Assembly (NCBI GenBank): GCA_963816365.1
Contig: CAWFKG010000005.1
Coordinates: 351,650 to 415,649 of the forward strand
Direction: 5' to 3'
DNA: 64,000 bases
From: an uncultured Bacteroidales bacterium
GTDB taxonomy: Bacteria > Bacteroidota > Bacteroidia > Bacteroidales > VadinHA17
Shown here: positions 18,255 to 43,000 of the stretch, piece after piece
Layout: the number at the start of each line of letters is the position of its first letter
Position numbering within the stretch: position 1 is the first letter of the stretch
The notes under the pieces: model-generated
Told to the model about the DNA's origin: nothing
Databases searched by the model: none
The model's input: only the letters and a program-made list of their open reading frames with translations
Made by a program: the position numbers and the translations under genes

Positions 18255-19463
18255 TTATTCTGTTTTCAGGGCAATTGCAGGCCGTATTTTTGATGCTATA
18301 GTTGCAGGTATCCATGTACTTAAAAAAACAAGTATGATCATAGATACAACGCTTATTAAAATTGATTGCAACAATACACCTGGTTCTGGTGGTTCCCCTC
18401 TGCTGACGAGGATTGGAATTTGGAGAACTATTAGAAGAACCATCAATAGTCCTGTCCCTGCAATAACCAGGTTTTCAGTTATCAGGAGACGTTTAATTCC
18501 TTTTCCAGTGGACCCGAGTGCACGTTTTATACCGATCTCGTGGATCCTCAGGTTCGTATTGTACCATAAAATACCAATAGTGCCAAGGAAAATATTGATG
18601 AGAACAAACAGTGCAATTATTACTGTAAGGTAATTTCTCTGATAGTTTTCGTTATTCACCTGTAAACGCATGTTATCGAGAGAATTCAGGCTGTTAATAG
18701 TCCAGCTTTCAGGATTAAGCGTTGAATAAACCTGGCTTTCAGCAATTGCCAGCATGTCGCTGGTTTTATTCTCTTTTGTGCGTATAAGCACTGAAGTTTG
18801 CCAGCTTGAACCTGCCTTAACTGAATCCTTTAATATAAATGCTGACAGGGTATGGTGTTTCAATATCATTTCGCTTAAACCTGTCAACTACACCGATAAT
18901 TTCATAGTTTGTGACATTGCCGGATCTCCCGTTTTTTTCGTATATTCTTTCACCCACTGCATTGCCTTTGAAATATTTTTCATCGGCATCGTTGGTAATA
19001 ATAATAGGATGGACGGCTTTTCCTAAATCTGTTTCATCGAACCATCTTCCTTTCAAGGGAACAATTTTCATTACTCTGCGCATAATCGATATCAACATTA
19101 CGGTTGGCAAAACCCATCTCAATGCTGTCGTGTTTGAATCCGGTCTGTGCTGATACTGTAATTGTAAGGTACAGCATTAGTGCTGATTGACACTGACTCA
19201 ACGAATGAGTTTGAAGCAAGTACTTTTTTAAGATTCTGAAATGACACCTCAGCAATTTTTTCAGATTCAGGGTTCTTTTTAGTTATATCTAACAGAATGA
19301 CATTATGAGTATCGTAACAGTTCTTAATACGATATATTGACAGCATATTGTCAAGGTAAAGAATCAGATTAACAAGAACGAAGGAAATCATAAACAGTTC
19401 TATAAAAACCAGGATATTCCGTCGTTTGTTATTCCATAGAGTTTTAAAAAACAAGCGTATCAT
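18255..19463 (-). CDS. ABC transporter permease (FtsX family), frameshifted
   Basis: Pieces 19119-19463, 18817-19122 and 18255-18887; RIHEIGIKRALGS, IRPAIALKTE. Confidence 0.82.
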
Positions 19464-25241: not shown

Positions 25242-26486
25242 ATGAAAAATTTATTAGCGTCTATCTCCTTAATATTTTGTTTATTACAATTAACTGAGGG
25301 TCAAAAAATAAGCGAATGGCGACCGGAAAACAGAACCGGCGTTTCGGCCGAAACCGGATTGCTTAAATCGTGGCCTGCATCGGGCCCTGCTTTGCTTTGG
25401 TTTAACCAGGATCTGGCTTCAGGCTTTTCATCGGTAACATTTGGGCAAAACTCTATATTTTTGACCGGAATGATTGGCAAAAACGATGTATTATTTGCAT
25501 TAGATACTGTTGGAAAAATAAAATGGCAGGTACCGTATGGTCGTGCCTGGACCGGAGCCACTCCTGAAAGCAGATGTACTCCCACTGTTGAAGGGAACAA
25601 TGTTTATGTATCCAGCGGATCGGGTGATCTGGCATGTGTTGACGCAAATACCGGTAAAATTATCTGGTCGGTTAAAGCAAGTGAAACATACAAAGGAACC
25701 TTTGAACAATGGGGCATTGCGGAATCACTTCTTTTAGATGGAAATAAACTTTATTTCACGCCAGGTGGATCACAGACAATGACAATCGCCCTGGATAAAA
25801 AAACCGGAACTTTAATCTGGAAATCTGCAAGCCTTAAGGATGCTCCCGCCTACGTTTCTCCTATCCTTATTAATTTCAAGGGAAAGAGATTAATAATTAA
25901 TGTTTCAAGCAGTTATATTTTTGCGGTTGATCCTTCAAATGGAAATATAGTATGGAAAATAAAGCATCTTGACATTAACCCCGCAAAAGCTGAAGTAATA
26001 AAATGCGTTACCCCTCTTTATTACGATGGGAAAATTTATGTTACCGGAGGTTATGATCATGGAGCCATAATGCTCAGTTTAACTGACGGCGGCAATAATG
26101 CAAAGGTGGCATGGACAGATAATGTTCTTGATGTGCATCATGGGGGTGTGGTTCTGGTTAACGGTCATATATATGGATCAAACTGGCTGAACAACAACGA
26201 TGGAAACTGGTGTTGCATAGACTGGAATACCGGTAAGAAAAATTATGAAGAGCACTGGAAATGCAAAGGCTCAATCATTTCTGCTGAAGGTATGCTGTAT
26301 ATCTATGATGAACGATCAGGTTTTGTAGGTTTGGTTAAGGCAAATCCTGATAAGTTCGATTTAGTAAGCAGCTTTAAAATATCCAAAGGATCAGGACCCT
26401 ACTGGGCACACCCTGTCATTCATAATAAAAAGCTATACATCCGTCATGGCAAAGCGCTTATGGCCTTCAATATTCAAAGCAATTAA
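25242..26486 (+). CDS. PQQ_2/BamB-like beta-propeller protein 1 (secreted)
   Basis: Signal peptide; WRPENRTG...W N-terminal motif; repeated CVDANTGKIIW and ALDKKTGTLIW blades; WAHPVI...LYIRH C-terminus. Confidence 0.88.
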   Translation: MKNLLASISLIFCLLQLTEGQKISEWRPENRTGVSAETGLLKSWPASGPALLWFNQDLASGFSSVTFGQNSIFLTGMIGKNDVLFALDTVGKIKWQVPYGRAWTGATPESRCTPTVEGNNVYVSSGSGDLACVDANTGKIIWSVKASETYKGTFEQWGIAESLLLDGNKLYFTPGGSQTMTIALDKKTGTLIWKSASLKDAPAYVSPILINFKGKRLIINVSSSYIFAVDPSNGNIVWKIKHLDINPAKAEVIKCVTPLYYDGKIYVTGGYDHGAIMLSLTDGGNNAKVAWTDNVLDVHHGGVVLVNGHIYGSNWLNNNDGNWCCIDWNTGKKNYEEHWKCKGSIISAEGMLYIYDERSGFVGLVKANPDKFDLVSSFKISKGSGPYWAHPVIHNKKLYIRHGKALMAFNIQSN

Positions 26487-26582
26487 TATTCTTAATTTCC
26501 GTTTTTATACGGAATAAAATAAAGTTCAGGAATGCATTATTCTTTATCCAGGTAAAGGTTTGTAAGAGGATAAAAAAAAGAA

Positions 26583-26590
26583 TAGCTTTG
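26583..26590 (+). promoter_or_regulatory. Bacteroidota sigmaA -7 element
   Basis: TAGCTTTG (TAnnTTTG) about 45 bp upstream of 26633. Confidence 0.5.
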
Positions 26591-26632
26591 CGCACTGATG
26601 CGAAAGCATTAAGTATATAGCAGAAGGAGTGG

Positions 26633-28084
26633 ATGATACACGATAAGCAAAGTAAAATTATTATTTCTTTAGTTGTATTAGTTTTTGGAACTGTACTTCT
26701 TTGGTGGATACTTAACCCGCAACCTCTGCCAGTAACCGAAAGGATCCCTGGCATGGACGAACGTCCAAAAATGATTGTCCGTTCAGACACAGTGAATATC
26801 GGAGAATTTTTTGATACTCTCTCGGCGATGGATGAAGTTGTGCCTGGTGACTGGCCACGTTTCAGGGGCAATGATTTTGATAATATAAACAAAGACACAA
26901 CTCCGTTATCAGAGAATTGGGACACTTCCGGACCTTCAATACTCTGGAGAGCAACTCTTGGTGAAGGGTATGCCGGTCCGGCAGTACATAACGGCAGAGT
27001 TTACCTTCTCGATTATAATGAAAGAAAAAAGGCCGATGTGCTGAGATGTTTTTCGCTTTCATCAGGAAAAGAACTCTGGAGGCGGTGGTATTATGTTGAT
27101 CTGAAACGAAATCACGGATACTCAAGAACGATTCCTGCAGTTACCGACAAATATCTTGTTACAATCGGACCACGATCTCATGTAATGTGTGTTGATCCGT
27201 ACAGCGGAAAAATGCTGTGGTCGATTGATCTCGAAAAAGAGTTTGGTATCCCGGGTACAGAGAAAGGAAGAATTACTCCCGACTTTTATACAGGACAATG
27301 TCCCATGATCGATAATGATATAGCTGTTATTGCGCCTGGTGGAAAGGCTCTGATGATAGGTGTGGATTGTGCTTCAGGAAAAATAATCTGGGAAACACCT
27401 AATCCTGATTCCCTGCGAATGTCACATAATTCAATAATGCCAATGACTATTCACGGGAAAAGAATGTATGTATATAATGCAGTCGGGGGAGTATGCGGTG
27501 TATCTGCTGAAAAAGCCGATTTAGGCAAGCTCATGTGGATAACTACTGACTGGAGTCCGGCAACAACCGCAGCCTCACCAATCCTCCTGGGAAATGACGA
27601 AATTGCTGTTTTTGGAAGCTATGGGGCTGGAGGTGCAAGGATCCTTATTAGTAGTACGGCATCGGGTTATTCTGCCACCGTCAGGGAACAGCACAAAGCT
27701 ACAAATGGACTCGCCAGCGATCAACAAACGCCGGTAATCATCGGAAATTATATCTGGAGTGTTCTTCCTGAAAACGCCGGAGCATTGAAAAAGCAGCTTG
27801 TCTGCTATAAAAAGACGGATCTTTTAACAGCTGTGTGGTCGAGCGGCAAAGAATACAGGTTTGGCCGCGGACTAGGACCATATATTGTTAGCGGTGATAA
27901 ATTATATCTTCTGGATGATGACGGAAATCTTTACTTTTATAAGATTCAGGATAACAAAGCCACATTGTTGGCAAGTCATAAAATATTGAAAGGGATTGAA
28001 GCATGGGGCCCAATGGCCATAGCCGGTAAGTACCTCATTATGAGAGATTCACGAAATTTGCTTTGTTTGAATATTGGTAAATGA
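26633..28084 (+). CDS. PQQ_2-like beta-propeller protein 2 (membrane-anchored)
   Basis: N-terminal TM helix; DWPRFRG; GEGYAGPAVHNGRVY; blades SGKELW, SGKMLW, SGKIIW. Confidence 0.88.
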   Translation: MIHDKQSKIIISLVVLVFGTVLLWWILNPQPLPVTERIPGMDERPKMIVRSDTVNIGEFFDTLSAMDEVVPGDWPRFRGNDFDNINKDTTPLSENWDTSGPSILWRATLGEGYAGPAVHNGRVYLLDYNERKKADVLRCFSLSSGKELWRRWYYVDLKRNHGYSRTIPAVTDKYLVTIGPRSHVMCVDPYSGKMLWSIDLEKEFGIPGTEKGRITPDFYTGQCPMIDNDIAVIAPGGKALMIGVDCASGKIIWETPNPDSLRMSHNSIMPMTIHGKRMYVYNAVGGVCGVSAEKADLGKLMWITTDWSPATTAASPILLGNDEIAVFGSYGAGGARILISSTASGYSATVREQHKATNGLASDQQTPVIIGNYIWSVLPENAGALKKQLVCYKKTDLLTAVWSSGKEYRFGRGLGPYIVSGDKLYLLDDDGNLYFYKIQDNKATLLASHKILKGIEAWGPMAIAGKYLIMRDSRNLLCLNIGK

Positions 28085-28091
28085 ACCGAAA

Positions 28092-29012
28092 ATGAAAAAG
28101 AATCTGATAACAATTCTATCCGTGTTGGTTATACTCGCTTTCATTGGGTATATAGTATTTGATTCTGTTAAGCCGTCTCTGGCTGCTAAAAGTGAACCTG
28201 TGACAGTGGAATCTCAGGAGATACCTGATGCCTGGGAGATCTCAAATGTTTTCAAGGTGAGTGAAGGTTCTCTTAAAGCTGTAACAGTGACCCCAAATGG
28301 AGAAATATATCTTGGAGGAACTTCATTCCTTTCGTGTTATGACAAGGATTTGAATCTCGTCTGGAAAAAGAAAACAAAATCACCTGTAACATCGCTCTCA
28401 AATTATGGCGACACAATTTATGCATCAACATCAAGTATGATATATGTCTTGAATTTCGCTGGCAGAATATTAAGCGAATGGGGGCCGTTTGAAGACAGTT
28501 CTCTCATTACTTCATTAAGCTCAAACAGGAAATATGTTGCAGTTGCAGATGCAGGAAATAGAATGGTCTTTATTCTGGATAAAGGTGGTGAGGTTAAGAA
28601 GATGATAGGCCAGAATAAAAAAGAATTTGTTATCCCGAGTCCTTATTTTGACGTGGCCCTCGATAACGACGATAATCTTTTTGTTGCAAATACAGGGAAA
28701 CATCGCATTGAAACCCGGACTATTGATGGTAGCTTAAAAAGTTATTTTGGAGAAGCAGGAACTGCTCCGGGATTGTTTTGCGGGTGTTGTGCTCCTCCAC
28801 ATTTCGCAATCATTCCTGAAGGATTTGTGACAGCTGAAAAAGGAATTAACAGGATCAAGATCCTGAACAAAAAGGGTGAATTCGTTGAGTTCGTCAATTC
28901 AAAAAATAGCTTCGTTAAATCTGTTCCTCTGGATGTGGCTTCCAGTGATGGTAAAATAATTTATGCGGCCAATCCGGCTGACTCGAGACTATATATATTT
29001 AAAAGGAAATAA
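28092..29012 (+). CDS. NHL-repeat-like beta-propeller with CGCC motif
   Basis: VAVADAGNRMV, LFVANTGKHRIE, FCGCCAPPHFA, VTAEKGINRIK; N-terminal TM helix. Confidence 0.75.
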   Translation: MKKNLITILSVLVILAFIGYIVFDSVKPSLAAKSEPVTVESQEIPDAWEISNVFKVSEGSLKAVTVTPNGEIYLGGTSFLSCYDKDLNLVWKKKTKSPVTSLSNYGDTIYASTSSMIYVLNFAGRILSEWGPFEDSSLITSLSSNRKYVAVADAGNRMVFILDKGGEVKKMIGQNKKEFVIPSPYFDVALDNDDNLFVANTGKHRIETRTIDGSLKSYFGEAGTAPGLFCGCCAPPHFAIIPEGFVTAEKGINRIKILNKKGEFVEFVNSKNSFVKSVPLDVASSDGKIIYAANPADSRLYIFKRK

Positions 29013-29304: not shown

Positions 29305-29874
29305 ATGAAGGCCGGCAAAAATAAATATCAGTCAAGACGCGATTTTGTGAAAGCTGCAGGAAAGGTGATTGTGACGATACCCCTGATAATAATCCCGGCC
29401 TTTCTTGCAAAAAAAACTTCTGCTTCCGGTTATGTCTGGCAGATCGACCCGTTCAAATGCACGCAATGCGGTCAGTGCAAAACCAATTGTGTCCTTACTC
29501 CTTCTGCCTCAAAATGTGTTCACGCGTTCAGGATGTGTGGTTATTGCGACCTCTGCGGCGGCTATCTCCGCCAGGGAGTTAAAACTATAAGTACAGGCGC
29601 AGAAAACCAGCTATGTCCTACCGGAGCAATTACCCGAAAATTCGTAGAAGAACCGTATTTTGAATATACCATCAATGAAAAGCTATGTGACGGTTGCGCT
29701 AAATGTGTCAAGGGATGCGGCGATTTCGGGAATGGATCACTTTATATGCAGATCCGGCATGACAGGTGTCTGAACTGCAATGAATGCTCGATTGCACGAA
29801 CCTGCCCTTCGAATGCAATTTCAAGAATTCCTGCCAGGATTGCATATTTACCTAAAGACGCACCCAAAAAATAA
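29305..29874 (+). CDS. Polyferredoxin with twin-arginine signal (NapG/MauM-like role)
   Basis: SRRDFVK followed by a hydrophobic stretch; CTQCGQCKTNC, CGYCDLC, CPTGAI, CDGCAKCVKGC, CLNCNEC..CP. Confidence 0.85.
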   Translation: MKAGKNKYQSRRDFVKAAGKVIVTIPLIIIPAFLAKKTSASGYVWQIDPFKCTQCGQCKTNCVLTPSASKCVHAFRMCGYCDLCGGYLRQGVKTISTGAENQLCPTGAITRKFVEEPYFEYTINEKLCDGCAKCVKGCGDFGNGSLYMQIRHDRCLNCNECSIARTCPSNAISRIPARIAYLPKDAPKK

Positions 29875-30008: not shown

Positions 30009-31355
30009 ATGACTCAATTCCAAAAATATAACCGTATTAACCCCCCTTTAGGGACGCAGGGGGGCAAATTCGCTAAGGGGGGCCAATCCCGAAAGAAAAC
30101 CTTACCATATATATTATTTGTACTGCTTTTATGCTGGCACGTGGTTCTCTTTGCCCAGGACAGGTTTCCGAGACCTGAATTTGAATCAGGTCATATCTAT
30201 CCCACCAACCAGATGCCGGTGCCCAGGGCCCAGGTACTGGAGTACCTTGATGTTGTGGTTTTGATCGGTGCGTTGATATTAACCACCTGGCTGGCATTGA
30301 AAAAGCGTTCACGACGGGGCCTGATCTGGATGTCGGTGTTTTCGGTGGCATATTTCGGTTTCTACAGACAAGGCTGTATCTGTTCGGTAGGATCGGTTCA
30401 GAATGTATCACTGGCATTGTTTAATACCGGCTACTCGATTCCGGTTACAGCACTTCTTTTCTTTATTATTCCGCTCCTCTTCGCTCTTGCTTACGGACGT
30501 GTATTTTGCGCGGGAGTTTGTCCGCTTGGTGCCATTCAGGAATTAACCGGTTTAAAGCCCGTCAAACTGCCAAAACCTGTGGAAGTGATCCTTGCATTTG
30601 TACCTTTTATTTATCTCGGGATTGCAATATTGTTTTCAGCCACAAACAGTCAGTTCATGATCTGCAAATATGATCCTTTTGTTGGTATTTTCAGACTTGA
30701 TGCCCCCTATACAATGATAATATTTGGAGCCTTGCTGCTTCTGGCAGGAATATTTGTCAACAGGCCATATTGCAGATATCTGTGTCCTTACGGAGTCCTT
30801 CTCAATATCTTTTCACGGTTTGCAGGGAAACATCTGACAATAACACCAGCTGAATGCACGAATTGCCGGCTTTGTGAGGAAGCATGTCCCTATGATGCCA
30901 TCCTCCCTGCTGATACTGATCAGACCAGGGAAGAACCTGAGAGATCAAGAAAAAGGTTTATTCTCTACTTTATTCTTGTGCCAGTCTTCGCAATCAGCGG
31001 AGCATTTTTACTTTATAACCTCGCTCCTGCCTTGTCAGGTGCAAACAGTACTGTCAGGCTGGCAAGAGAGATCAGAAGTGAGAAAAAAACCGGGCTTGAA
31101 ACAACCCTGAAAGATGTTGTTGCATTCAAAGAATCGGGAAAAACAGAATCCGAGCTATTCAAGGATGAAGAGGTGATAATTAATCGATTCATAAAAGGTT
31201 CACCCTGGGCCGGCGCATTTCTTGGAATTTCATTCGGCCTCGGAATGATCTCACTGACAATTAGAAGTAAGAGAAGTGAATATAAGCCACATCAGGGGAA
31301 GTGTTATAGTTGCGGGAGATGTTTTAAATATTGTCCAATTAAAGTGAAAGTTTAA
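30009..31355 (+). CDS. Integral-membrane 4Fe-4S protein (NapH/MauN/NosR-C-terminal family)
   Basis: FCAGVCPLG and YCRYLCPYG (CX3CP), CTNCRLCEEACP, C-terminal CYSCGRCFKYCP, multiple TM helices. Confidence 0.88.
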   Translation: MTQFQKYNRINPPLGTQGGKFAKGGQSRKKTLPYILFVLLLCWHVVLFAQDRFPRPEFESGHIYPTNQMPVPRAQVLEYLDVVVLIGALILTTWLALKKRSRRGLIWMSVFSVAYFGFYRQGCICSVGSVQNVSLALFNTGYSIPVTALLFFIIPLLFALAYGRVFCAGVCPLGAIQELTGLKPVKLPKPVEVILAFVPFIYLGIAILFSATNSQFMICKYDPFVGIFRLDAPYTMIIFGALLLLAGIFVNRPYCRYLCPYGVLLNIFSRFAGKHLTITPAECTNCRLCEEACPYDAILPADTDQTREEPERSRKRFILYFILVPVFAISGAFLLYNLAPALSGANSTVRLAREIRSEKKTGLETTLKDVVAFKESGKTESELFKDEEVIINRFIKGSPWAGAFLGISFGLGMISLTIRSKRSEYKPHQGKCYSCGRCFKYCPIKVKV

Positions 31356-31356: not shown

Positions 31357-33052
31357 ATGAAGATTGCTTTAACTGAAAAAGATATCCGGGTTCTGAAAGT
31401 TGTCAGTCAGATTGCAGGAGGATTTGCGCTTATCGTTGCTCTGACCATGATCTTCGCTCTGATCCAGTTAAAAACTGTGAATCCGTTGGATAATCCGGTT
31501 TTGCTTTCGGTGAAGGAGCAGTATGACAAGGACCCGTCAGATGCTGCAAAAGCGGCACAGGTCAGAGCCATGGATCTTATGGCCCGGAAAGCCTATTTCA
31601 GTTCAAGGTGGCAGGTTGAAGCCGGTTCATATCTTCTTATTGCAGGAGTCATTGTATTCATAATATGTCAGAGACTTATTACGGAAAATGAAAAACTCAA
31701 CCCGGTACTCACTGATGCAAAACCCAGCGCCATATTGAATCGCGAGAGGAACAGAAAATATCTCATTTCTACTGTCACCGTAGTTTTTATATTAGCTGTT
31801 GCAGCATCTTTTTATCTTCGTGCGGATCTTCCCGATATATCGGGCAATTCTTCACGAACTGCAAAGAGTGAAGGAGGAGGAGACGATAGAGCTTCTAAAC
31901 CTGATAAAACAAACTGGCCATTTTTCCGCGGACAGGATAGTCGTGGAATTGCAGGCGGTTCAGGTTATCCGACCGAGTGGAATGGAGAATCGGGAAAGAA
32001 TATTGAATGGAAACTGGAGGTGCCCGGAAGAGGAAAGAGCTCTCCTGTTATATGGGGTGATAAGATTTTTATTACAGGTGCGAAGGATAAGGTCTGTGAA
32101 ATATATTGCATCGATAAGAATAACGGGAAAATTTTGTGGACCGGTTCTGCCTCTAATATTCCGGGAGAACCTGCTGTATCTCCAAAGACCGATGCTGAAG
32201 CTGGTCTGGCTGTATCAACAGTAGCTTCAAATGGCAAAGTTGTTTGTGCTGTTTTTGCAAATGGCAACCTGGCCTGCTTTGATTTGGATGGAAAACAGCT
32301 CTGGGCAAAAAATATAGGGGTCCCTGAGACCAGTTACGGTTACTCATCATCCCTGCTCATATATAAAGATATTCTGATTGTCCAATTCGATAGCAATTCC
32401 AAAATATCACTTAATGGATTTGATCTGGGAACCGGTGCATCAGAAATGGGAAACTCTCCGGCAGGGACGTGCAGTATGGTCATCTCCGGTACTCGGGTAT
32501 TTTAACGGCAAAACTCAGGTAATAATAAACGGTAATCCTTCCGTCAGTAGTTATGATCCGGTTACCGGAACCGAACTCTGGGAAATAGAATGTATGAGCG
32601 GTGATGTTGCGCCATCAGTAGCAGTTAACAGCACCCTTGCATATGCTGTAACTGATTATGCAAAGCTTGCAGCAATTAAACCCGGTAATGGAGTCTCAAT
32701 TGCCTGGGAAGACAATACTTATACTCCTGATGTATCGAGCCCGGTTGCTACAGATAAGTTCTTATTCCTGTCAACAGGAAATGGGGACGTTGCCTGCTAC
32801 AATGCATCGAAAGGAGATACAGTCTGGACTCATTATTTCCAGGATCCGTTTTATGCCTCACCTATAATTGCAGATGAAATGGTTTATCTGCTTGACAGAG
32901 CTGGTATCATGCATATAGTCAAAGCAGGAGATAAATTCACTCATATCGGTGATTCTCCTCTTGGTGAAAGCGCCGATTGCTCACCTGCCTTTTCCGACAA
33001 GAAAATTTATATCAGGGGAACGAAAAACCTCTATTGTATTTCGAAGAATTGA
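31357..33052 (+). CDS. PQQ_2-like beta-propeller protein 3 with N-terminal TM helices (frameshift near 32437)
   Basis: Three TM segments, NWPFFRG, SSPVIWGDKIF; continues in ORF 32378-33052 (KWETLR...WSSPV...IYIRG). Confidence 0.85.
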
Positions 33053-35458
33053 AAACAGATAAATCAAAAATATTGTCCGGCACCTGTGAATGCGAAAAGA
33101 TTTCGCAGGCAGATATTACAAATGTAATAGATGAAGTTCTGGCTATTACAGGCACGTGAACCTGAAAAAGTTATATTGATACTCCAGGAGGTTCAGAAAA
33201 GGCTTAACTGGCTACCTTCAGAAGCTCTTAAATATATATGTAAAGTAACTGATATCACACCCGGGCAAATATCGGGAGTTTCTACATTTTATACCCAGTT
33301 CCGTCATCTTCCTGTCGGTGAGCATACAATCAAAATATGCGCAGGAACAGCATGTCATGTAAAAGGCAGTCCGTTGATATCCGATGCGTTTAAAAGAGTT
33401 CTGAAAATTGATGATTCAAAAAATGCTTCTCCAGATAATCTTTTTTCAATTGAGGAAGTAGCCTGCCTTGGCTGCTGTACGCTGGCTCCGGTTGTTCAGA
33501 TTGACGGAAAGACATATGGCCATGTCAAAACAACGCAGGTTGACGAAATAATTTATGATTTTCTGCATCAGGGTAAAATGAGTACTATGATTCAGGAACA
33601 AGAAGCCGGCACAGAGGTAGATGCTGAGATCAGGGTAGGAATCGGTTCATGCTGTGTTGCCGGAGGAAGTAAGGAAATCGTGTCTGAAATTTTTGAAATT
33701 AAACAAAGATATAATCTCAATATCAGATTAAAACAGGTAGGTTGTGTAGGTGTTTGCAATCAGACTCCTTTAATGGAGATAGTTACAAAAGATGAAGTCC
33801 ATTCCAGTTATACAAAAGTATCTAAAGAAAGAGTTGAAGAAATTCTTCTTAAGCATGTACAGCCCAGGGAATTGAATAAAAGGATCAGGTACAAGATAAA
33901 TGATCTTGTTGATACATTCCTGTCTGAAGACAAGCTTACGGGGCAGGTTAATTTACCAGTTGAACAAAGAGAGAAATACCTTGATAACTTCCTGAATCAC
34001 CAGGTTCATCTTGCAACAAAAAACAATGGTATGCTTTCTCCTGAATCCTACAATGAATATTGTTTGTCAGGAGGGTATGATGCATTAAAAAAATGCCTTA
34101 AGGAATCTGACCGGGGATCGATAATTAAAATTATATCAGAGAGTGGCCTTCGAGGTCGCGGAGGTGCAGGATTTCCTACAGGTAAAAAATGGGATATTTC
34201 AGCAAATTCAAACGGTGACACGAAATATGTAGTTTGTAACGGTGACGAAGGTGATCCCGGAGCGTTCATGGACAGAATGCTTCTTGAATCATTTCCTTAC
34301 CGGGTTATAGAAGGAATGGTCATTGCAGGTTATGCGACAGGAGCCAGCGAAGGGATATTTTATATCAGGGCAGAGTATCCGTTAGCTGTAACCAGGGTAA
34401 GGATAGCACTGAAAGCTTGTTATGAAAACGGAATTCTCGGAAAAAATATTTTTGGCACTTCATTTTCATTTGACATTAATATTTTTGAGGGTGCCGGTGC
34501 TTTTGTTTGCGGAGAAGAAACCGCTCTGATCGCATCTCTTGAAGGTAAGCGCGGAACCCCGCATATCCGGCCTCCCTACCCTGCTGTAAAAGGATATAAG
34601 AACAGACCTACGCTCGTTAATAATGTTGAGACCCTTTCACTTGTTCCATGGATAATCAATAATGGTGCAGTTCTATTTGCATCAATCGGCACTGAAAAAA
34701 GCAAGGGGACAAAAGTATTTGCTCTTGCAGGGAAGATTTCAAAAGGTGGTCTGATCGAAGTGCCAATGGGAACAACAATCCGACAAATAGTTGAGAATAT
34801 CGGAGACGGTGTTGCTGATGGTAATACTTTTAAAGCCATTCAGATCGGTGGTCCTTCAGGAGGTTGTATTCCTGCAAGTCATGCTGATATTGCAATTGAT
34901 TATGAGGAACTTACAAGGATGGGTGCGATGATGGGCTCAGGTGGAATGGTAGTCCTCGACAATACCGACTGTATGGTCGACATGGCAAAATACTTCCTTA
35001 CTTTTACTCATAAACAGTCGTGCGGGAAATGTACATTTTGCAGAATTGGTACAAAACAGATGCTCAATATTATTAACGCATTGTCTGAGGGTAAAGCCAC
35101 TTTAGATGATATTAAGGAGCTTGAGAAGTTATGCAAATTCGTTAAGGATGGCAGCTTATGCGGCCTTGGAAAAACATCCCCCAATCCGGTACTTACTGGT
35201 TTGAAATATTTCAGGGAGGAATATGAAGAACATACAAAAGGGATTTGCAGGGCAAACAAATGCCAGGCTCTCATCAAATATCAAATAAATGATGATTGTA
35301 CCGGCTGCACAAAATGTTCGCAGGATTGTCCGGTAAAAGCAATTCCGTTTAAACCTTATGAAAAACATGAGATAGACCAGCTAATATGCACTAAATGTGA
35401 TAACTGTAGAATTGTTTGTCCTGAAAAGGCTATTGAAATAGTAAATATTAATGCTTAG
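33049..35458 (+). CDS. Fused NuoE + thioredoxin-like [2Fe-2S] + NuoF + 2[4Fe-4S] protein (HydC/HydB or BfuC/B-like); frameshift near 33157
   Basis: TTG start overlapping the previous stop; CAGTAC..CLGCC, GSCC..GCVGVC, SGLRGRGGAGFPTG, GDEGDPGAFMDR, GAFVCGEETAL, GGPSGG, SCGKCTFC, CTGCTKC..CP, CTKCDNC..CP. Confidence 0.92.
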
Positions 35459-36551
35459 AATTAAAATAGACAATATTGATTTTGAAGCCGCTGAAGGTTT
35501 AACCATCATGGATGTCGCCAGGGATGCCGGAATACACATCCCTTCCCTGTGCTTTTCAGATAGATTACCACACTATTCTTCATGTATGGTTTGCATGGTA
35601 AAAGATAAAAGAACAGGTAACTTTTTACCCTCGTGTTCTGCGTTGGTACAGGATGGCATGGACATTGAATCTGCCTCTGAAGATGTAATTACTATAAGAA
35701 AAAAATCACTGGAACTTCTACTGTCTGAGCATCGAGCGGAGTGTGAGGCACAATGTAAAGTTGTTTGTCCGGAAGGATATGATATTCCTCTGATGAACAG
35801 GCTTTTAAGTGCTAATGATTTGGATGGTGCCGTCTATCTTTCTATAAGTCAGACAAAATTTTCAATATTAAAATGCTTTGATTGCAAGGGATATTGTGAG
35901 AATGCCTGCCGGAGAAAAAAAGTTGATGCTCCTGTTTCAATCCGCAATATGCAAATGTTTGTCTACGGACAAATCAGTAGGGGCGTTGCATGCAACGCCC
36001 CTCCCGGTGGTCTTGAACAGGGTAATAGTGAGCTCCCAAAACAAAAAGCACCAAAACGTTTTTCATCACGTATTGGCACAATTGAGCAAAATGAACTGAA
36101 AGAATGGCTTAAAGAATGCAAAAATGGCCTTTCCCGTTTCAGGGATATCACAAATATTGAATCTGCTGCCCGGGAGTCTGAGAGTTGCATGCATTGTGAT
36201 TGTCGCGCTGCAGTCGATTGTAAACTGCGACTCCTGGCCGATGAATTAGCTGTTAAAGATCCAAAAGGGAAACTGGTTAATTCTCCTATTCAAAAGAAGA
36301 TAAATATCAATACAGGACTTATCTTTGAGAATGCCAAGTGCATCAAATGCGGTCTTTGTGTCAGACTATGTGAGGAATTAAAAGAAGAACCGGCACTTTG
36401 CTTTATAAACCGGGGATTTGTCAGTATAATCTCAGAGCCACTTACTGAGGACTTTGAAAATATACTGAGGACAAGAAGCAAAGAGGTTGTTGAGATATGC
36501 CCTACGGGGGCTTTAAGTTTGCGAACACCGACTGCTAGCGCGGATTTATAA
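35451..36551 (+). CDS. Fe-S relay subunit (NuoG/HydA N-terminal-like plus GltD-like Fe-S domain), no catalytic domain
   Basis: IPSLC..SCMVCMV..SC [2Fe-2S]; LLSEHRAEC; AQCKVVCP..DIP; YCENACRRKKVDAPVSIR; CMHCDC..DCKL; CIKCGLCVRLC..ICPTGAL. Confidence 0.85.
   Translation: MLRIKIDNIDFEAAEGLTIMDVARDAGIHIPSLCFSDRLPHYSSCMVCMVKDKRTGNFLPSCSALVQDGMDIESASEDVITIRKKSLELLLSEHRAECEAQCKVVCPEGYDIPLMNRLLSANDLDGAVYLSISQTKFSILKCFDCKGYCENACRRKKVDAPVSIRNMQMFVYGQISRGVACNAPPGGLEQGNSELPKQKAPKRFSSRIGTIEQNELKEWLKECKNGLSRFRDITNIESAARESESCMHCDCRAAVDCKLRLLADELAVKDPKGKLVNSPIQKKININTGLIFENAKCIKCGLCVRLCEELKEEPALCFINRGFVSIISEPLTEDFENILRTRSKEVVEICPTGALSLRTPTASADL
35977..36002 (+). repeat. GTAG-type REP palindrome inside a CDS
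   Basis: GT followed by the perfect 24-bp palindrome AGGGGCGTTGCATGCAACGCCCCT. Confidence 0.75.
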
Positions 36552-36619: not shown

Positions 36620-37726
36620 ATGAAATTCATTCTTACAGGCATATTAAGTTTTCTCTTATACGTTTCTGTTTCCGGTCAATCAGCAGACTGGCCATTATTC
36701 AGAGGCAAGGCAGATCTGGCAGGAAAGACAGAATCGGAATTTCCTCTGTCACCCAGGCTTCTGTGGAGCATTAAAACAGGTGCAACGACGAAATCTTCGC
36801 CGGTTATTAGTGAAGGAACCGTTTATTATGGAAATGATAAAGGGTCTCTTATAGCGGTCAGTTCCGACGGAAAGATAAAGTGGAAATATGAAGCTGGAAG
36901 TTCAATAGATGCCGCACCAATGGTATTTGGAAATAAAGTGGTATTTGGAAACAGCGATGGAATTCTGAGAGCAATTGACAAATTCTCAGGCAAATTAATA
37001 TGGTCATATACTACTGATAATCAGATTGCCGGCTCCGCAAATGTATGGACTGAAGGCGACAGGTCAGGAATTGTAACAGGAAGCTATGATTATTATCTTC
37101 ATTGTGTAGATCCTCACACGGGCAAATCTCTCTGGAAGGTCGAGACTGAAAACTATATAAACGGAACCCCTGCAATACTGAACGGAAAAATAGTGTTCGG
37201 AGGCTGTGACGGGATGTTAAGAGTTGTGGATCCTCTGACGGGCAAGGAAAATGATACCATTAATATAGGAGTATATATTGCATCCTCTCCTGCCCTCTCA
37301 GGCAGTCTGGCGTACTTCGGGGATTATGACGGTACAATATATTGTGTTAACATCAAGACCAGGAAGATCATCTGGAAGATACAGGGAACCGGAGAAGGAG
37401 GCTCAATAATGTCAATTCCAGCAATCGGAAATAATTCCGTTGTAATAGGCAGTGAGGATAGATATCTTTATTGTTATAACTCTGCCGATGGTAAGTTGTT
37501 ATGGAAATTTCGAACAAACGGAAGAATAGTCGGATCTGCTGTAATATCATCAACTCAGGTTCTCTTTACAGGAATGGATGGGTTCATCTATATATTAAGG
37601 CTGTCCGACGGGAAAAAGCTTTGGAGCTTCAATGCAGGTACCCCTGTAAGCAGCTCTCCGGCGGTGGTTGACGGAAAGTTTTATATTCTGACAGAGGATG
37701 GCAGATTAATGGCATTTGGGAATTAA
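36620..37726 (+). CDS. PQQ_2/BamB-like beta-propeller protein 4 (secreted, regular blades)
   Basis: Signal peptide, DWPLFRG, repeated SSPxI...G..DG...GK..W. Confidence 0.9.
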   Translation: MKFILTGILSFLLYVSVSGQSADWPLFRGKADLAGKTESEFPLSPRLLWSIKTGATTKSSPVISEGTVYYGNDKGSLIAVSSDGKIKWKYEAGSSIDAAPMVFGNKVVFGNSDGILRAIDKFSGKLIWSYTTDNQIAGSANVWTEGDRSGIVTGSYDYYLHCVDPHTGKSLWKVETENYINGTPAILNGKIVFGGCDGMLRVVDPLTGKENDTINIGVYIASSPALSGSLAYFGDYDGTIYCVNIKTRKIIWKIQGTGEGGSIMSIPAIGNNSVVIGSEDRYLYCYNSADGKLLWKFRTNGRIVGSAVISSTQVLFTGMDGFIYILRLSDGKKLWSFNAGTPVSSSPAVVDGKFYILTEDGRLMAFGN

Positions 37727-37737
37727 ACTCTGTGTGG

Positions 37738-37808
37738 CCTCTCCCTAAATCCTCTCCCCCAAGGGGGAGGGACTTAAGGGGGATGAGGTAATAGAATTTA
37801 GGGAGAGG
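37738..37808. repeat. GC-rich palindromic element with 13-bp terminal inverted repeats
   Basis: CCTCTCCCTAAAT...ATTTAGGGAGAGG with an inner CCCCC-AA-GGGGG hairpin. Confidence 0.75.
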
Positions 37809-37838
37809 TAAAAGGGCTACAGAGGAATATTAAATAAT

Positions 37839-39143
37839 ATGAAAATAGTCTATCTCATTACAGGTTCGGGAGGTTCATTTTATTGCGGCAATTGCTACCG
37901 CGATATGATCTACCTCAGGGCCATCCGCAAGGTCCCGGGGATAAGCGCTTCCGCTATCCCATTGTATCTTCCTCCTGATGGTCCGGAAAACGAAACAGGA
38001 ATGGATAAAAATGTCTTTTTCGGTGCAATCTCGATGTATCTGAGAGAAAAAGTCCCGTTTCTCAGAAATATGCCGGTATTTCTGGAAAAGATGTTTGATT
38101 CCGCTCCAATGCTTAAAATGGCCGCTCAAAGAGCCGGTACAACCAGGACAGAGGGTCTTGAAGAGATGACACTTAACATGATAAAAGGGGAAAATGCATT
38201 TCCGGAAAAGGAACTGAATCGGTTGACGGATTATCTTACAAAAGACGGAAAACCTGATGTTATTCATCTCTCTAATGCGCTCATAATCGGACTGGCACGA
38301 CAGATCAAAAAGAAGCTTGATGTAAAGATCGTTTGCTCTCTACTTAATGAAGACGACTGGATAGACGAAATGGCGGAACCTTATCAGTCGGGAGCATGGA
38401 AACTGATATCAAAAGAAGCATCAAATGTTGATGCGTTCCTTACCCCGAGTAATTATTATAAAGAGTTGTTCATTGCAAAAACAGGAATTTCAGGAGCCAA
38501 TTTTCACGTTATCCCACTCGGATTTGATCCCGGCGAACAGATAAAAACTGAAAAGAGAGATAATTATCCTTCTGTTGGATATTTCTGCAGAATAAGCTCT
38601 CAGAACGGTTTTGACAAGCTGGTAGATGCTTTTATTGAGATGAAAACAGCTGATTATCTTCCGGGACTGACCCTTCACGTATCTGGCGGTTATACTGGTG
38701 ATGATAAACATTTTATTGCTCAGCAGATAAAGAAAATAAAATCAAGTGGCCTGAAATCTTTTGTAAGAATTTATCCCGAATTTCATGGTAACAGCAAACA
38801 GGAGTTTTTCAGGAATATAGATGTGATGAGTGTGCCAGTCAGAAAGCATGATGGTTATGGTTTATACATCCTTGAAGCAAATGCTGCAGGAGTACCGGTT
38901 GTCCAGCCTGCAACAGGAGCATTTCCGGAAATTATTGCGAGGACCACGGGAGGATTAACTTATTTACCGGACACAGTATCGGAACTGTCAGCAAACCTGC
39001 TGAAAATACTGAAAGAAAATGAATTACGTATTCAACTGGGAAAACAGGGAAAAGATAAGGTTCTGTCTGAACTCTCTCTTGAGAAAATGTCAGAAGGCTT
39101 ATCTAAAGTTTATAATTCTTTACCGCAAAGGAACACGAAGTAA
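37839..39143 (+). CDS. Glycosyltransferase family 4 (GT-B) with N-terminal CxxC
   Basis: PDVIHLSN; donor-binding motif DGYGLYILEANAAGVPVVQPATGAFPEI; N-terminal GSFYCGNCYRD. Confidence 0.88.
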   Translation: MKIVYLITGSGGSFYCGNCYRDMIYLRAIRKVPGISASAIPLYLPPDGPENETGMDKNVFFGAISMYLREKVPFLRNMPVFLEKMFDSAPMLKMAAQRAGTTRTEGLEEMTLNMIKGENAFPEKELNRLTDYLTKDGKPDVIHLSNALIIGLARQIKKKLDVKIVCSLLNEDDWIDEMAEPYQSGAWKLISKEASNVDAFLTPSNYYKELFIAKTGISGANFHVIPLGFDPGEQIKTEKRDNYPSVGYFCRISSQNGFDKLVDAFIEMKTADYLPGLTLHVSGGYTGDDKHFIAQQIKKIKSSGLKSFVRIYPEFHGNSKQEFFRNIDVMSVPVRKHDGYGLYILEANAAGVPVVQPATGAFPEIIARTTGGLTYLPDTVSELSANLLKILKENELRIQLGKQGKDKVLSELSLEKMSEGLSKVYNSLPQRNTK

Positions 39144-39348
39144 AAGCAATTGAGTGACATACATATACGTTCGCTGGCGCGGATTTGCAATCCGTGCCAT
39201 TATGCAAACTAGGACCGAGGAGATGAAGGGGCACAGATAACAACCGGGCAGATGCAGGGGCACGGATTGCAAATCCGCGCCAGCATTATAGTAAAGTTTT
39301 TTTTCCAGAATGGATCACTAAGTAAAGGCAACCGAGACATACATATAC
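39139..39348. repeat. Inverted REP doublet (family A) flanked by imperfect direct repeats
   Basis: REP copies at 39173-39198 (-) and 39259-39284 (+); flanks AGTAAAAGCAATTGAGTGACATACATATAC (39139-39168) and AGTAAAGGCAACCGAGACATACATATAC (39321-39348). Confidence 0.8.
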
Positions 39349-39356
39349 CAAAATAG

Positions 39357-40031
39357 ATGCTTTTAGTAAAAAATATTTCAAAATCCTTTATTCAGCGCGG
39401 TTTAGTTCTCGATAATCTTTGTCTTGACGTGGCCGAGGGAGAGACTATCGCCATAATGGGTCCATCGGGTTCGGGGAAAACGACCCTTATGAATATCATA
39501 GGGTTGCTGGATAAGCCCGATTCAGGTGAAATATCTTTCAGAGGTGCTGCAATAGCGGGATTTTCAGAGGATGAATCGGCTGATTACAGGAACAAAAATA
39601 TCGGTTTTGTATTTCAGGACCATCACCTCCTGCCATATCTTACCGTTTCTGAAAATATATACCTCCCGCTTCTGGCTTCAAAGCATTCAAAGGAAGACCT
39701 TTCTGCAAGTCAGGACTATTTGGAGGAACTGATGGAGAAGACCGGCATTTCTGATCTGAAAGACAAATATCCCTTCAGGATATCAGGCGGAGAATCTCAA
39801 CGGGTTGCGCTGGTCAGGGCGTTGGCAAACAAGCCTTCAATCATTCTTGCAGATGAACCAACAGGTTCGCTAGATGCAAGAAATGCAGAAATTCTGGGCG
39901 AACTCCTTGTACGAACGAGTGTAGATTTTGGCAAAACAATCATTCTCGCCACTCATTCAATCAGTCTGGCTAAAAAGATGTCAAAAATATTGTACCTGAA
40001 AGAAGGTGTCCTGAAAGTCTCAGCAGATTAA
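39357..40031 (+). CDS. ABC transporter ATP-binding protein (LolD/MacB-type)
   Basis: GPSGSGKT, ISGGESQR, ILADEPTGSLD, LATHS. Confidence 0.94.
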   Translation: MLLVKNISKSFIQRGLVLDNLCLDVAEGETIAIMGPSGSGKTTLMNIIGLLDKPDSGEISFRGAAIAGFSEDESADYRNKNIGFVFQDHHLLPYLTVSENIYLPLLASKHSKEDLSASQDYLEELMEKTGISDLKDKYPFRISGGESQRVALVRALANKPSIILADEPTGSLDARNAEILGELLVRTSVDFGKTIILATHSISLAKKMSKILYLKEGVLKVSAD

Positions 40032-40047
40032 CAGAACAATTACTATC

Positions 40048-43000
40048 ATGCTAAGCATTAAGTTAGCTATACAATCAATTAAATTCTATAAAAGGCAGGT
40101 TGTAAACCAGGTTCTTATCATCGTTTTGCTGACAGCCGTAATAACCGGTTCACTGCTGACGGGAAGTTCAGTTAAGGAGAGTTTGAGGAGGACAGCTTCC
40201 CACCGCCTGGGCAACGCTGACATTGTGATTAGTTCAGAAAACAGATATTTTAGTCGTGACCTTGGTATAAGAATGCATGCAAAATCAGGTATTTCAAGCA
40301 CAGGATTGCTGGAAACCAAAGGTTACTGTCAGGTACTGAATAATCAGAAGGGTTCATTCAATACAAATATTTACGGTATCACGAAGGATTTTTTTGGTTT
40401 CCAGGGATTTGATACAATAAATCTGAAGCCGGGAGAAATTATTATTAACAGCAAGCTGGCCGGTATACTCGGAGCTAAGCAGGGTGACGACATTATGATT
40501 CGTTACAAAGAGATAAGCTACATACCTTCTGATGCTCCTTTTGCTCCTTCAAAAGATGAAAGTAAATCACTTGTGATGAAGATCGGACGTATACTGCCAC
40601 CTGATCAGATTGGCAGCTTTTCATTGTCAATCAGTCAGATCACACCTTCGAATATTTTTGTGAACCTCTCCGATCTGGAAGATACTCCGGATAATTCACT
40701 GAAGATTAACCGACTGCTTATAAAGCAAATAAGTTCGAATTCGGTGAAGAAGGTATCGCAGGAATTGAAAACCTCATTGAGGCTTTCCGATATCGGACTA
40801 AAGTTAAGAAAGGTGGCAAAGACCGGGGAGTATGAACTTATATCTGACAGGATATTTATAGATAAATCAATTATTAATGAGATTGATAAGATTCTCCCGA
40901 ATTCCTCTCCTGTCATCACTTACCTTGGAAACAAGTTTGTTGCTGGCTCTGAATTTACCCCCTATTCATTTGTTTCAGCTTTACCTGCAGCACTTTATCC
41001 TGAAATCCCTGGTGATAACGGAATGATAATAAACAGGTGGATGGCAGAAGATCTTTCAGCTGGTGTTGGCGATACAATTCAAATTTACTGGTATTCTCCT
41101 GATTCCCTGAAACAGCTTATTGAAAGAAACAGCAGGTTCATTATAAAGAAAGTTGTTGACATGAAAGGTATCTGGTCGGATTCACTGCTGATGCCTGACT
41201 TTCCCGGGATCTCAGGAAAAGAATCTTGTTCCGGCTGGGATGCTGGGGTAATGATAAAAACCGATGAAATACGGAATAAGGATGAGCAATACTGGAAAAG
41301 ATACAGAGGTACTCCGAAAGCCTTTATAGCTTATGAAAAAGGCAGGGAACTATGGGGCAATAATTTTGGACCTGCTACCGCAGTGCGATATCCTGCTGGA
41401 TTGACTGCCATTCAGATCACCGATAAGCTTGAAGGATCGCTTGATCCTGCGTATATGGGTTTTATTGTCACCGATCTGGCTGATGAATCGCTTAAAGCAG
41501 CAAATACAGGTGTGGATTTCGGTTCTCTTTTTCTAAGCCTTGGTTTTTTTCTCATTGTGGCCTCCCTGGTCCTGTTGTCATTTGCTGCCTCTTCATATTT
41601 CTATTCCAAAAGAGATCACATAAATACATTATTTGCCCTGGGTTTTAAAAACAGGCAGATTTTGCAACTGTTGTTCATGGAAAGTGGATTAATTGCTCTT
41701 ACTGGCTGTTTTGCCGGGGCATTTTCCGGATATCTGGTGACTTTAGCAATTGCAGGTGCTCTCAATTCAGTCTGGAAGGGAGCCGTTCAGACAGATACGA
41801 TTGGCGCATTCTTTAACTTACTGCCAATTAGCTATGGCTTTCTCTTAACATTTTTTACGATAATGACGCTGATGTTTGTTAAGATAAAGCGATATCTCAA
41901 CCGATTGACCATAAGCCGAATGGAGAAATATACAATTCCCTCGGCAGCTCAGAATGCCATCCTGGTTTCAGTTTCAGCAATCATAACTGTTTCTCTGTTT
42001 ATAATGGCTTCAAAATTCAGCAGCCTGCGAATGCTATTTTCTTTTTCGGCCGGTGCAATGCTTCTGATTACACTGATGCTTTCATGGAGACAGTATTTTG
42101 TAAGCAGAACTGTTAGGTCCCGGATTTCAATTAAGAACAGGAAGCAACTGTCACATTTATACTATTCATTCAACCCTTCAATTGCGGTCACTCCTATTCT
42201 ATTTATCGCTGCCGGCATTTTTACGGTTTTTATAACCGGGGCCAACAGAATGAATTTCAATGAAAAACAAATGAACAAGTCGGGAGGTACCGGCGGATAT
42301 TTGCTTTGGTGTGAAAGTTCAGTTCCTGTAATGGCAGATCCTAATACCCTTCCGGGAAGGAAAACTCTTGGATTCGACAGTGATCAGCTGTCCGGAATGA
42401 GCTTTGTCCTCCTCAAAAGATCTGCTGGCAACGATGCAAGTTGCCTTAACCTTAATCACATAATGTCACCACCTATCCTTGGAGTTGATCCTGAGGTGTT
42501 CATAAAAAATAAATCATTCTCATTTGCAGGTTCCGTTGCCGTGAAAAAGCTGGCCAACCCCTGGGAATACCTGAATCTTCCGCCGATGCACAACACTATA
42601 TATGGCATTGCAGATCAGACGGTTCTTGATTGGGGACTAAAGATAAAAACAGGAGATACACTAGTCATGAGAGCCGAGAATGGTCAGCTGCTGAACATAA
42701 TTATTGCAGCAGGTCTGCAATCTTCTGTATTTCAGGGTAATGTATTGATTGGCGTGCGCAATTTCACAATATTCTACCCTTCCGTGCCGGGAAGTCAGGT
42801 GATGCTCGTAGACGGTGACAGGTCATTGATCGATATATACAAAAACTCTATTGCTGAACGATTGGAGAATTATGGGATGGATATTGAAAAAACATCTGAT
42901 CGTCTTGCTTCATTTTATCAGGTTACCAATACCTATCTTTCAGTATTTGGAATATTCGGCGCCCTTGGAATGGTGATAGGTATCGCCGGACTTGGATTTG

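Follow-up and report, generated by a model that had tools for sequence, protein, structure and literature searches.

The locus described here raises the question of where a bifurcating-type NADH/ferredoxin flavoprotein would send its electrons when its partner subunit carries no catalytic domain and the surrounding genes encode membrane and periplasmic proteins. The window, which is the whole 64,000-nucleotide (nt) stretch that we analysed, comprises positions 351,650 to 415,649 of contig CAWFKG010000005.1 (assembly GCA_963816365.1) from an uncultured Bacteroidales bacterium of the VadinHA17 lineage, and the gene in question is a fusion of BfuC and BfuB, two subunits of the Bfu family. Bfu enzymes play a central part in the energy conservation of anaerobes, and few of their third substrates have been tested. 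At a probability of roughly 60%, we favor an explanation in which the fusion is a bifurcating BfuBC core that, together with an A subunit acting as an iron-sulfur (Fe-S) wire, is linked to a membrane module resembling NapGH. The more interesting point is less the family assignment than the partner lacking a catalytic domain and the membrane/periplasmic context of the cluster. In window coordinates, the fusion and its partner are laid out as follows.

33131..35458, + strand: longest open reading frame (ORF) as assembled, 775 amino acids (aa) from ATG 33131; fused BfuC (NuoE-like) and BfuB (HydB/NfnB-like)
33049..33159, + strand: 5′ end in the frame of the family; TTG 33049, 35 codons, premature TGA at 33157-33159
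33155..33559, + strand: BfuC/NuoE-like [2Fe-2S] domain, C1 (Cys70, 75, 112/115, 116); PF01257, aa 9-143, E 4e-45
33626..33886, + strand: second thioredoxin-like [2Fe-2S] domain, B5 (Cys174, 175, 205, 209); second PF01257 stretch, aa ~166-252
34133..34648, + strand: domain binding flavin mononucleotide (FMN) and NADH (Nuo51); PF01512, aa 335-506, E 2e-44
34847..34861, + strand: GGPSG motif of the SLBB region, aa 573-577
34970..35263, + strand: NuoF-type [4Fe-4S] domain, B1 (Cys631, 634, 637, 677); PF10589, aa 617-701, E 3e-31
35288..35437, + strand: C-terminal 2x[4Fe-4S] ferredoxin-like domain, B3/B4; Fer4_7/Fer4_21, aa 720-769
35451..36551, + strand: BfuA-like Fe-S scaffold (A subunit), 366 aa; 8-nt overlap with the stop of the fusion

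We find that all of these domains of the fusion sit in one polypeptide, the product of ORF 33131-35458, by matches to Pfam and NCBIfam models. This is what a preliminary description of this DNA had claimed, and every motif that it quoted was located in the 775-aa ORF. The motifs fall at aa 172-175 (GSCC), 204-209 (GCVGVC), 372-380 (DEGDPGAFM), 456-463 (GAFVCGEE), 614-617 (CMVD), and 700-706 (EH..GIC, then C711), and the C-terminal domain contains two C..C..C...CP motifs. The FMN/NADH domain also has GRGGAGF at aa 342-348. Additionally, the B5 domain is matched on aa 174-252 by NF041612, an NCBIfam model for a small 2Fe-2S ferredoxin, and aligns to NfnB from residue 7, while a site of three Cys and one His (B2; Cys614, His701, Cys706, Cys711) is interleaved with the B1 ligands. 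The NuoF family model TIGR01959 covers aa 303-701 (model positions 10-409 of 410) at 454 bits, against an equivalog cut-off of 559 bits. When the window protein is aligned with 31 fused homologues, at identities down to 54%, the ligands of C1, B5, B1, and the 3Cys+His site, as well as all eight B3/B4 Cys, are invariant in 32/32 sequences.

Bifurcating beta subunits have been distinguished by extra Fe-S domains, an Ala or Glu plus a Met after DPG, a GGPSG motif, and a Phe in place of Tyr near the FMN, as in GAFVCGEE (PMC7311640, Losey 2020). The fusion has every one of these features, including its extra Fe-S domains, DEGDPGAFM, GAFVCGEE, and GGPSG. The Bfu family itself was defined by the BfuB plus BfuC domain set, with a conserved His at B2 (PMC9304861, Schut 2022). 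Here we observe the FMN/NADH domain (IPR011538), the NuoF [4Fe-4S] domain (IPR019575), the C-terminal 2x[4Fe-4S] domain (IPR017896), and the BfuC [2Fe-2S] domain (IPR002023), the last fused to BfuB, together with both the B2 His and the N-terminal B5 [2Fe-2S] domain. The minimal bifurcating unit is described as FMN, B1, and C1 (PMC11829005), and all three sites lie within this single chain. According to the same source, B2 holds zinc in most solved enzymes and is not needed for bifurcation; in the fusion, the 3Cys+His set is a putative metal site whose metal is not readable from sequence.

Among all PDB chains, the top matches of the B part (aa 167-772) are NfnB proteins, namely 9n5u_B (685 bits), 9bov_B (670 bits), and 8oh5_B (665 bits), the last from what we take to be the S. 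ovata enzyme. Entry 9N5U is T. sibiricus NfnABC (PMC12018979) and 9BOV/9BP5 are C. saccharolyticus NfnABC (PMC11829005). HydB chains of NiFe- and FeFe-hydrogenases score 544-611 bits, and the non-bifurcating relatives score 337-356 (FdsB), 348 (Nqo1), ~333 (NuoF), and 273 bits (HoxF). Altogether, the bifurcating NfnB, StnB, and HydB chains (544-685 bits) score about twice as high as the non-bifurcating ones (273-356 bits). We then built a quick IQ-TREE tree (LG+G4) from the B parts of 32 fused sequences, 41 split ones, and one NuoF-like outgroup (74 in total), with support from the Shimodaira-Hasegawa-like approximate likelihood ratio test (SH-aLRT) only. The 32 fused rows and L006, a fused gene that is broken in its metagenome-assembled genome (MAG), form one clade with SH-aLRT 100 and a stem of 0.43, which suggests that the fusion arose once. 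The nearest split rows are L032 and L075, whose placement is uncertain because of their long branches. The genome's own NuoF-like gene (contig C15, beside NuoH) sits on a very long branch, reads DEMEPGTFK and GRYICGEE, and lacks the C-terminal ferredoxin domain.

From these comparisons, we place the protein in the Nfn/Stn lineage, as a fusion of BfuC to the N-terminus of BfuB. That the gene encodes a Bfu BC core seems very likely, and bifurcation by the fusion is predicted from its family. At the family level, the PDB scores, the beta-subunit features, and the B2 His bear out the preliminary description in calling this a Bfu-type NADH/ferredoxin module rather than complex I. Its further statement that nuoA-D and nuoH-N genes are missing here also held, since the scanned window ORFs of ≥150 aa included no complex I family; every NuoH match in the genome falls outside the window.

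What, then, would the core pass its electrons to? The 366-aa A subunit has the Pfam domains Fer2_4 and Fer4_Nqo3/Fer4_20 and comprises an N-terminal [2Fe-2S] domain, Fe-S ligands of the GltD-N type, a C-x2-C-x-C-x5-C set, and one ferredoxin-type [4Fe-4S] motif. The [2Fe-2S] plus ferredoxin-type [4Fe-4S] content required of a BfuA is present. Scans with family models found no flavin, NADPH, H-cluster, or pterin domain in it, and neither Pyr_redox nor Fe_hyd_lg_C was matched among Pfam models. Its top PDB matches are the A subunits of 9N5U, 9BOV, and 8OH5 (124-143 bits), and they cover only residues 1-172 and 228-362, which correspond to about 4-176 and 540-700 of NfnA/StnA. The GltD module that binds flavin adenine dinucleotide (FAD) and NADPH (~175-540) is skipped, and the C-terminal formate dehydrogenase (FDH)-like domain is absent. 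Across 29 aligned A subunits, 29/29 share the same residue at 25 ligand positions (24 Cys plus His94), including the four Cys of the N-terminal [2Fe-2S] domain, the C-x2-C-x-C-x5-C set, the single ferredoxin-type [4Fe-4S] motif, and, in the GltD-N-type region, His94 and six of seven Cys; the seventh, C142, is kept in 27/29. A second ferredoxin-type motif has been lost, and by motif count the subunit could carry about five Fe-S clusters.

Longer A subunits occur in relatives of the cluster. In distant members (the Cyclobacteriaceae MAG, Pontiella, L029, and several other Bacteroidales genomes) A is ~490-550 aa long and keeps a FAD-type Rossmann domain while the NADPH subdomain is absent, and in L075, the nearest split relative, A is of the full Nfn type (Fer2_4, Fer4_20, and Pyr_redox_2). 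A series running from a full Nfn-type A through a FAD-only A to an Fe-S-only A fits stepwise loss, and the pair is inferred to descend from transhydrogenases of the Nfn/Stn type. The bifurcating core is strongly constrained while the NADPH-binding part of the ancestral partner was deleted. Because the A subunit lacks the FAD/NADPH module, NADP(H) cannot be the third substrate of the window enzyme, and if these Bacteroidetes proteins have been filed as "Nfn", that label would need revision, the NADPH subdomain being missing. We are confident, short of certainty, that the fusion works with the 366-aa A subunit.

An A subunit without a site for a mid-potential third substrate also favors another explanation, in which the locus encodes a plain, non-bifurcating NADH dehydrogenase (diaphorase) module running from FMN through B1 and A to a membrane protein of the NapH-like type, and in which the NuoE domain and the C-terminal ferredoxin-like domain provide only storage or side clusters. 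NADH alone would be thermodynamically sufficient for a quinone or periplasmic oxidant (Table 1, PMC9304861), and a published gamma-beta fusion, HydB of S. aciditrophicus, is non-bifurcating (PMC7311640). However, the S. aciditrophicus type is described there without the features that mark the bifurcating enzymes. In the window protein, B3/B4, B5, the 3Cys+His site, the A/M pair, the Phe, and GGPSG are all kept, whereas non-bifurcating homologues lack them, and these features are invariant across the 32 sequences even at 54% identity. Purifying selection of this kind on the ferredoxin arm speaks for its use. We therefore regard a plain diaphorase as unlikely and retain the bifurcating core with an Fe-S-wire A subunit as the better account of the two proteins.

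The genes on either side of the fusion and its partner are the reason to look toward the membrane.

25242..29012, + strand: three exported/anchored beta-propellers (bp1, 414 aa; bp2, 483 aa; bp3, 312 aa)
29305..29874, + strand: polyferredoxin (Fd189) with a twin-arginine translocation (Tat) signal, 189 aa, SRRDFVK, 17 Cys; NapG/NosG-like by architecture
30009..31355, + strand: NapH-like integral membrane Fe-S protein with two C-x3-C-P and two C-x2-C-x2-C-x3-CP motifs
31357..33052, + strand: beta-propeller protein with three transmembrane (TM) segments (bpTM), split into 382 + 224 aa; 564 aa in relatives
36620..43308, + strand: exported beta-propeller of 368 aa (bp368), GT4 glycosyltransferase, ABC-type ATPase, duplicated FtsX permease of 1086 aa

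The bpTM stop overlaps the TTG start of the fusion. The RR, F, and V of the Tat signal are invariant in 26 polyferredoxin sequences, and the Fe-S motifs of the NapH-like protein are predicted to face the cytoplasm, by the positive-inside rule read by eye. With the fusion as query, we retrieved 80 loci and determined their gene content by ORF picking with tblastn rescue. The gene order of the cluster was found in 33/80 loci (L001-L031, L033 from Pontiella sulfatireligans, and L036). The other 47/80 are of the separately encoded HydC/HydB type, most with a hydrogenase-sized A downstream and a few with other partners; 3/3 of the hydrogenase-sized A subunits scanned are [FeFe]-hydrogenases. In the loci of the cluster type with room for the gene, Fd189 is present in 27/27, the NapH-like protein in 28/28, bpTM in 30/30, and A in 33/33, and the order is kept across Bacteroidales, the Cyclobacteriaceae MAG, and Pontiella. 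The cluster genes are locked to this membrane/periplasmic set across distant lineages.

Co-occurrence in whole genomes gives a similar picture. Of 300 other Bacteroidales genomes, evenly sampled, 46 carry the fused gene in a single frame and 5 more carry truncated, partial, or one-stop versions, while 55 carry the Tat polyferredoxin. By hand tally, the polyferredoxin is found in 50/51 of the fusion genomes, with 5 polyferredoxin genomes lacking the fusion; related genomes in this sample are not independent, and about 40 genera are involved.

These distributions bear on a further explanation, namely a soluble Bfu enzyme of the BC-A type whose third-substrate module (GltD-like, hydrogenase, or other) is encoded elsewhere, or a simple NADH:ferredoxin oxidoreductase, with the propeller and NapH-like genes functionally unrelated. 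The genome does encode other candidates, having three other HydB-like loci and several HydA-like genes.

C10:181952-185148, C10:432582-436887, C15:196033-202415, C15:690998-696314: HydABC-type and NuoEFG-like loci elsewhere in the genome

These comprise at least three HydABC-type hydrogenase loci, two of them heavily frameshifted, and a NuoEFG-like set beside NuoH, and the Fe_hyd_lg_C matches of the genome fall on contigs C10 and C15 only. Contact between the core and the NapH-like protein is proposed from gene order, and in genome G026 the block of fusion, A, bp368, and GT4 stands apart from the NapH block; both are as a soluble enzyme would have it. However, the hydrogenase loci have their own, separate HydC, HydB, and HydA genes, the fusion and the Tat polyferredoxin co-occur almost completely across the Bacteroidales sample, and the gene order is kept in three distant lineages with overlapping reading frames. 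A soluble enzyme with an unrelated neighborhood is, in our judgment, improbable, and we continue with the proposal of a core linked to the membrane module.

How such a system could work can be outlined step by step. By homology, NADH binds at the FMN site, and FMN, the B1 [4Fe-4S] cluster, and the C1 [2Fe-2S] cluster form the unit that in the solved Nfn enzymes splits or merges electron pairs. The C-terminal B3/B4 clusters are the ferredoxin-facing arm, as in solved Bfu enzymes, and B1 is the exit toward the A subunit. From here, the outline follows gene order. The A subunit would be an Fe-S wire between the core and the cytoplasmic clusters of the NapH-like protein, which with the Tat polyferredoxin would lead, in the manner of NapGH/NosGH, to the quinone pool or into the periplasm. 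NADH and ferredoxin would in this way exchange electrons with a quinone or with an acceptor in the periplasm, close to the exported propellers. Two directions can be envisaged. NADH and reduced ferredoxin might jointly reduce the outside acceptor (confurcation), or NADH might reduce ferredoxin, pulled by a high-potential acceptor, as in EtfABCX, which uses menaquinone in this role (PMC9304861). Since the genome encodes pyruvate:ferredoxin oxidoreductase and several hydrogenases, both an NADH pool and a ferredoxin pool exist. For the link between the core and the NapGH-like module we would offer slightly worse than even odds. Stated in full, as the cytoplasmic head of an undescribed class of membrane-bound Bfu enzymes in which BfuCB and an Fe-S-only BfuA dock on a NapGH-like module leading to quinone or periplasm, the proposal is more tentative.

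Several observations weigh against this explanation. The sequence criteria separate families, and the activity of members of the fused clade is predicted from sequence. The Pfam SLBB model (IPR019554) is not matched in the fusion at E ≤ 0.001; both the NuoF family model and the alignment to NfnB run through the region gap-free, and it contains GGPSG. On the membrane side, NapH models score 52-62 bits (best 61.8) against NCBIfam cut-offs of 213-234, and no NapG model in NCBIfam matched the polyferredoxin. The beta-propellers show no visible cofactor site, their invariant residues being Cys pairs and few His. AlphaFold2 models of bp2 and bp3 (pLDDT, the predicted local distance difference test, 85 and 89) returned generic folds from a Foldseek search against the PDB: bp2 is an eight-bladed BamB-like propeller that also matches tetrathionate hydrolase and PQQ dehydrogenase at 12-15% identity, and bp3 is a six-bladed NHL propeller. 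An ESM Atlas search with bp2 gave "BamB family" clusters only, and these models and fold searches yielded no cofactor or substrate clue for either protein. Prediction of a complex between the NapH-like protein and the 366-aa A subunit scored 0.00, which is no answer and speaks neither for nor against binding.

Adjacency, moreover, is not obligatory. In G026, bp1-3, the polyferredoxin, the NapH-like protein, and bpTM lie on one contig and the fusion, A, bp368, and GT4 on another, which suggests that the halves of the cluster are separable yet co-inherited. As to the acceptor, the menA model was unmatched in this 90%-complete, indel-rich genome, a result we do not read as absence of menaquinone; three UbiA-family genes and NuoH genes are present. 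The present evidence appears to favor neither direction of electron flow, and the terminal acceptor is a candidate quinone or periplasmic compound only.

The assembled gene also raises the question of whether it is intact. The preliminary description gave a single gene spanning 33049-35458, of which the start agrees with that of the family and the single frame does not: the span is 2410 nt, which is not divisible by 3, and its single-frame translation gives stops throughout. From TTG 33049 (a second in-frame TTG lies ahead at 33034), 35 codons are followed by the premature TGA, and the ORF from ATG 33131 lies in another frame. The best 120 database relatives of the fusion are 777-809 aa long, mostly 802 or 807, at 79-97% identity. 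At their N-termini, the homologues agree with the 35 residues read from 33049 and then continue in the frame of the long ORF. An extra base must therefore lie in the window near 33154 (33154/33155), after the Gly codon 33151-33153 and before the next Arg codon. The preliminary description also proposed 35451 for co-expression with the fusion; it did not include the frameshift, the partner's want of a catalytic domain, or the larger membrane/periplasmic cluster.

To see whether other sequence data carry the extra base, contigs of the Logan collection from four public runs were aligned on 32200-33400. One base at 33154 or 33155 is absent from the Logan contigs in 3/3 runs covering the site, and one base at 32438 or 32440, within bpTM, is absent in 4/4 runs; an extra base near 32438-32440 accounts for the bpTM split. 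The contigs are 90-99% alike and come from related strains rather than demonstrably the same population, which leaves a real frameshift in the source strain conceivable. Elsewhere in the assembly, the reading of other hydrogenase loci is scattered among three frames and interrupted by as many as seven stops. Because the Logan contigs omit the base and the assembly is rich in broken genes, we read the break at 33154 as most likely an assembly (indel) error and the bpTM break at 32438-32440 as probably the same.

The reverse, that both frameshifts are real and the cluster is a decaying pseudogene in this strain, would draw on the presence of two frameshifts inside 720 nt in adjacent genes and on the position of the 33154 insertion outside any homopolymer run. 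We consider this very improbable. ATG 33131 still yields a 775-aa ORF that as it stands retains every domain intact, no further stops occur over 2.3 kb, the protein is 96-97% identical to intact relatives, and the broken genes abundant elsewhere in the assembly fit indel noise. The N-terminal extension encoded by 33049-33153 contains a C-x-C pair that is kept in most close Bacteroidales homologues, with a few varying, and is absent from the Cyclobacteriaceae and Pontiella proteins. The aligned Logan contigs come from runs labelled peat or soil; as the public runs screened contain at most 0.25 of the sampled words, we claim no habitat beyond this. Other genes in the window look broken (15552-20731, - strand, and 58690-59343), which fits an indel-rich assembly: a C-terminal piece of a histidine kinase beside a 202-aa ORF without an assigned family, a sigma-54 response regulator that begins in the middle of its receiver domain, three short FtsX-permease pieces, and an N-terminal piece of a FGGY kinase.

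Additional features of the neighborhood were observed. In the membrane-anchored bp3 (28074-29012), the sequence G-C-C-x-P-x-H (aa 237-243) is invariant in 25 sequences, and its two adjacent Cys, with the His beside them, could be a redox or metal site. Downstream of the FtsX permease, the segment 43315-49573 encodes two exported beta-propellers (452 and 453 aa, - strand) that recur in many syntenic loci, an FG-GAP repeat protein anchored at its N-terminus, and another NapH-like Fe-S protein with multiple TM segments (513 aa, + strand). It is followed at 49951-51911 (- strand) by a polyphosphate-related row of DUF2490, DUF4956, and VTC-domain genes, whose homologues recur beside the cluster in several relatives. 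Pontiella sulfatireligans has an extra gene inside the cluster (L033:1648-3198) encoding DUF116 fused to a polyprenyl synthetase, which may hint at a link to isoprenoids (a quinone or lipid carrier).

If the link to the membrane module is true, the cluster would represent a new class of third substrate for Bfu enzymes, in which a NapGH-like module gives access to an acceptor in the membrane or periplasm. Common Bacteroidales of peat, sediment, and digesters would gain a redox outlet besides H2, by a cytochrome-free route that leads from fermentative redox pools to the outer side of the cytoplasmic membrane, and such a route would exist in about one sixth of the sampled Bacteroidales species and in Pontiella. 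If the link is false, the protein would still represent a known family in a clean fused form that is easily expressed. Its single-chain BC core is in either case handy for testing the proposed movement of the C1 domain, which the tether must permit or limit.

A full-text literature search turned up no description of this cluster or of a fused bifurcating-type BC, and the words "fused" and "fusion" are absent from the main texts of the Bfu surveys PMC9304861 and PMC11406978. These proteins may already be among the Bacteroidetes entries under Nfn in the supplementary tables of PMC9304861. The Bfu family is known; the conserved cluster, with its fused bifurcating-type BC and pared-down A, is apparently undescribed.

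Among known systems, NfnABC and StnABC are the closest solved relatives of both the B part and the A subunit, sharing the B1/FMN/C1 set, the 3Cys+His site, the B3/B4 arm, and, in A, the N-terminal [2Fe-2S] and GltD-N Fe-S arm. They differ in that here C is fused to B, A lacks the FAD/NADPH (GltD) and FDH-like domains and has lost one of two ferredoxin-type clusters, and the gene context is membrane/periplasmic. The quinol-dehydrogenase modules NapGH and NosGH likewise combine a Tat-exported polyferredoxin with a multi-TM protein that has two C-x3-C-P and two cytoplasmic [4Fe-4S] motifs. In contrast to them, the window proteins score far below the family cut-offs, have no nitrate or N2O reductase nearby, and would have a cytoplasmic NADH/ferredoxin flavoprotein attached that replaces or supplements the quinol pool. 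The HydABC [FeFe]-hydrogenases of T. maritima, A. woodii, and T. kivui share the BfuBC core and the features of bifurcating beta subunits; however, no H-cluster domain adjoins the fusion, and the split HydB genes fall outside the fused clade. Respiratory complex I is set apart by the extra Fe-S domains of the fusion and the lack of nuo genes alongside it. S. aciditrophicus HydB has the same order of a NuoE-like domain N-terminal to a NuoF-like domain, whereas it and the respiratory NuoE/NuoF have non-bifurcating motif states and lack the extra clusters (PMC7311640). A parallel in logic is offered by the Type 2/3 Bfu enzymes (Wor-Bfu, NiFe-HydABCSL), which have an Fe-S-only BfuA and extra subunits, and membrane-bound Nuo-Bfu and Mbh-Bfu complexes have been predicted as well (PMC9304861). 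A NapH-like protein, a Tat polyferredoxin, and propellers are not among the partners given in the main text of that survey. As in those enzymes, BfuA would here be only a wire, and the third substrate would be handled by other subunits.

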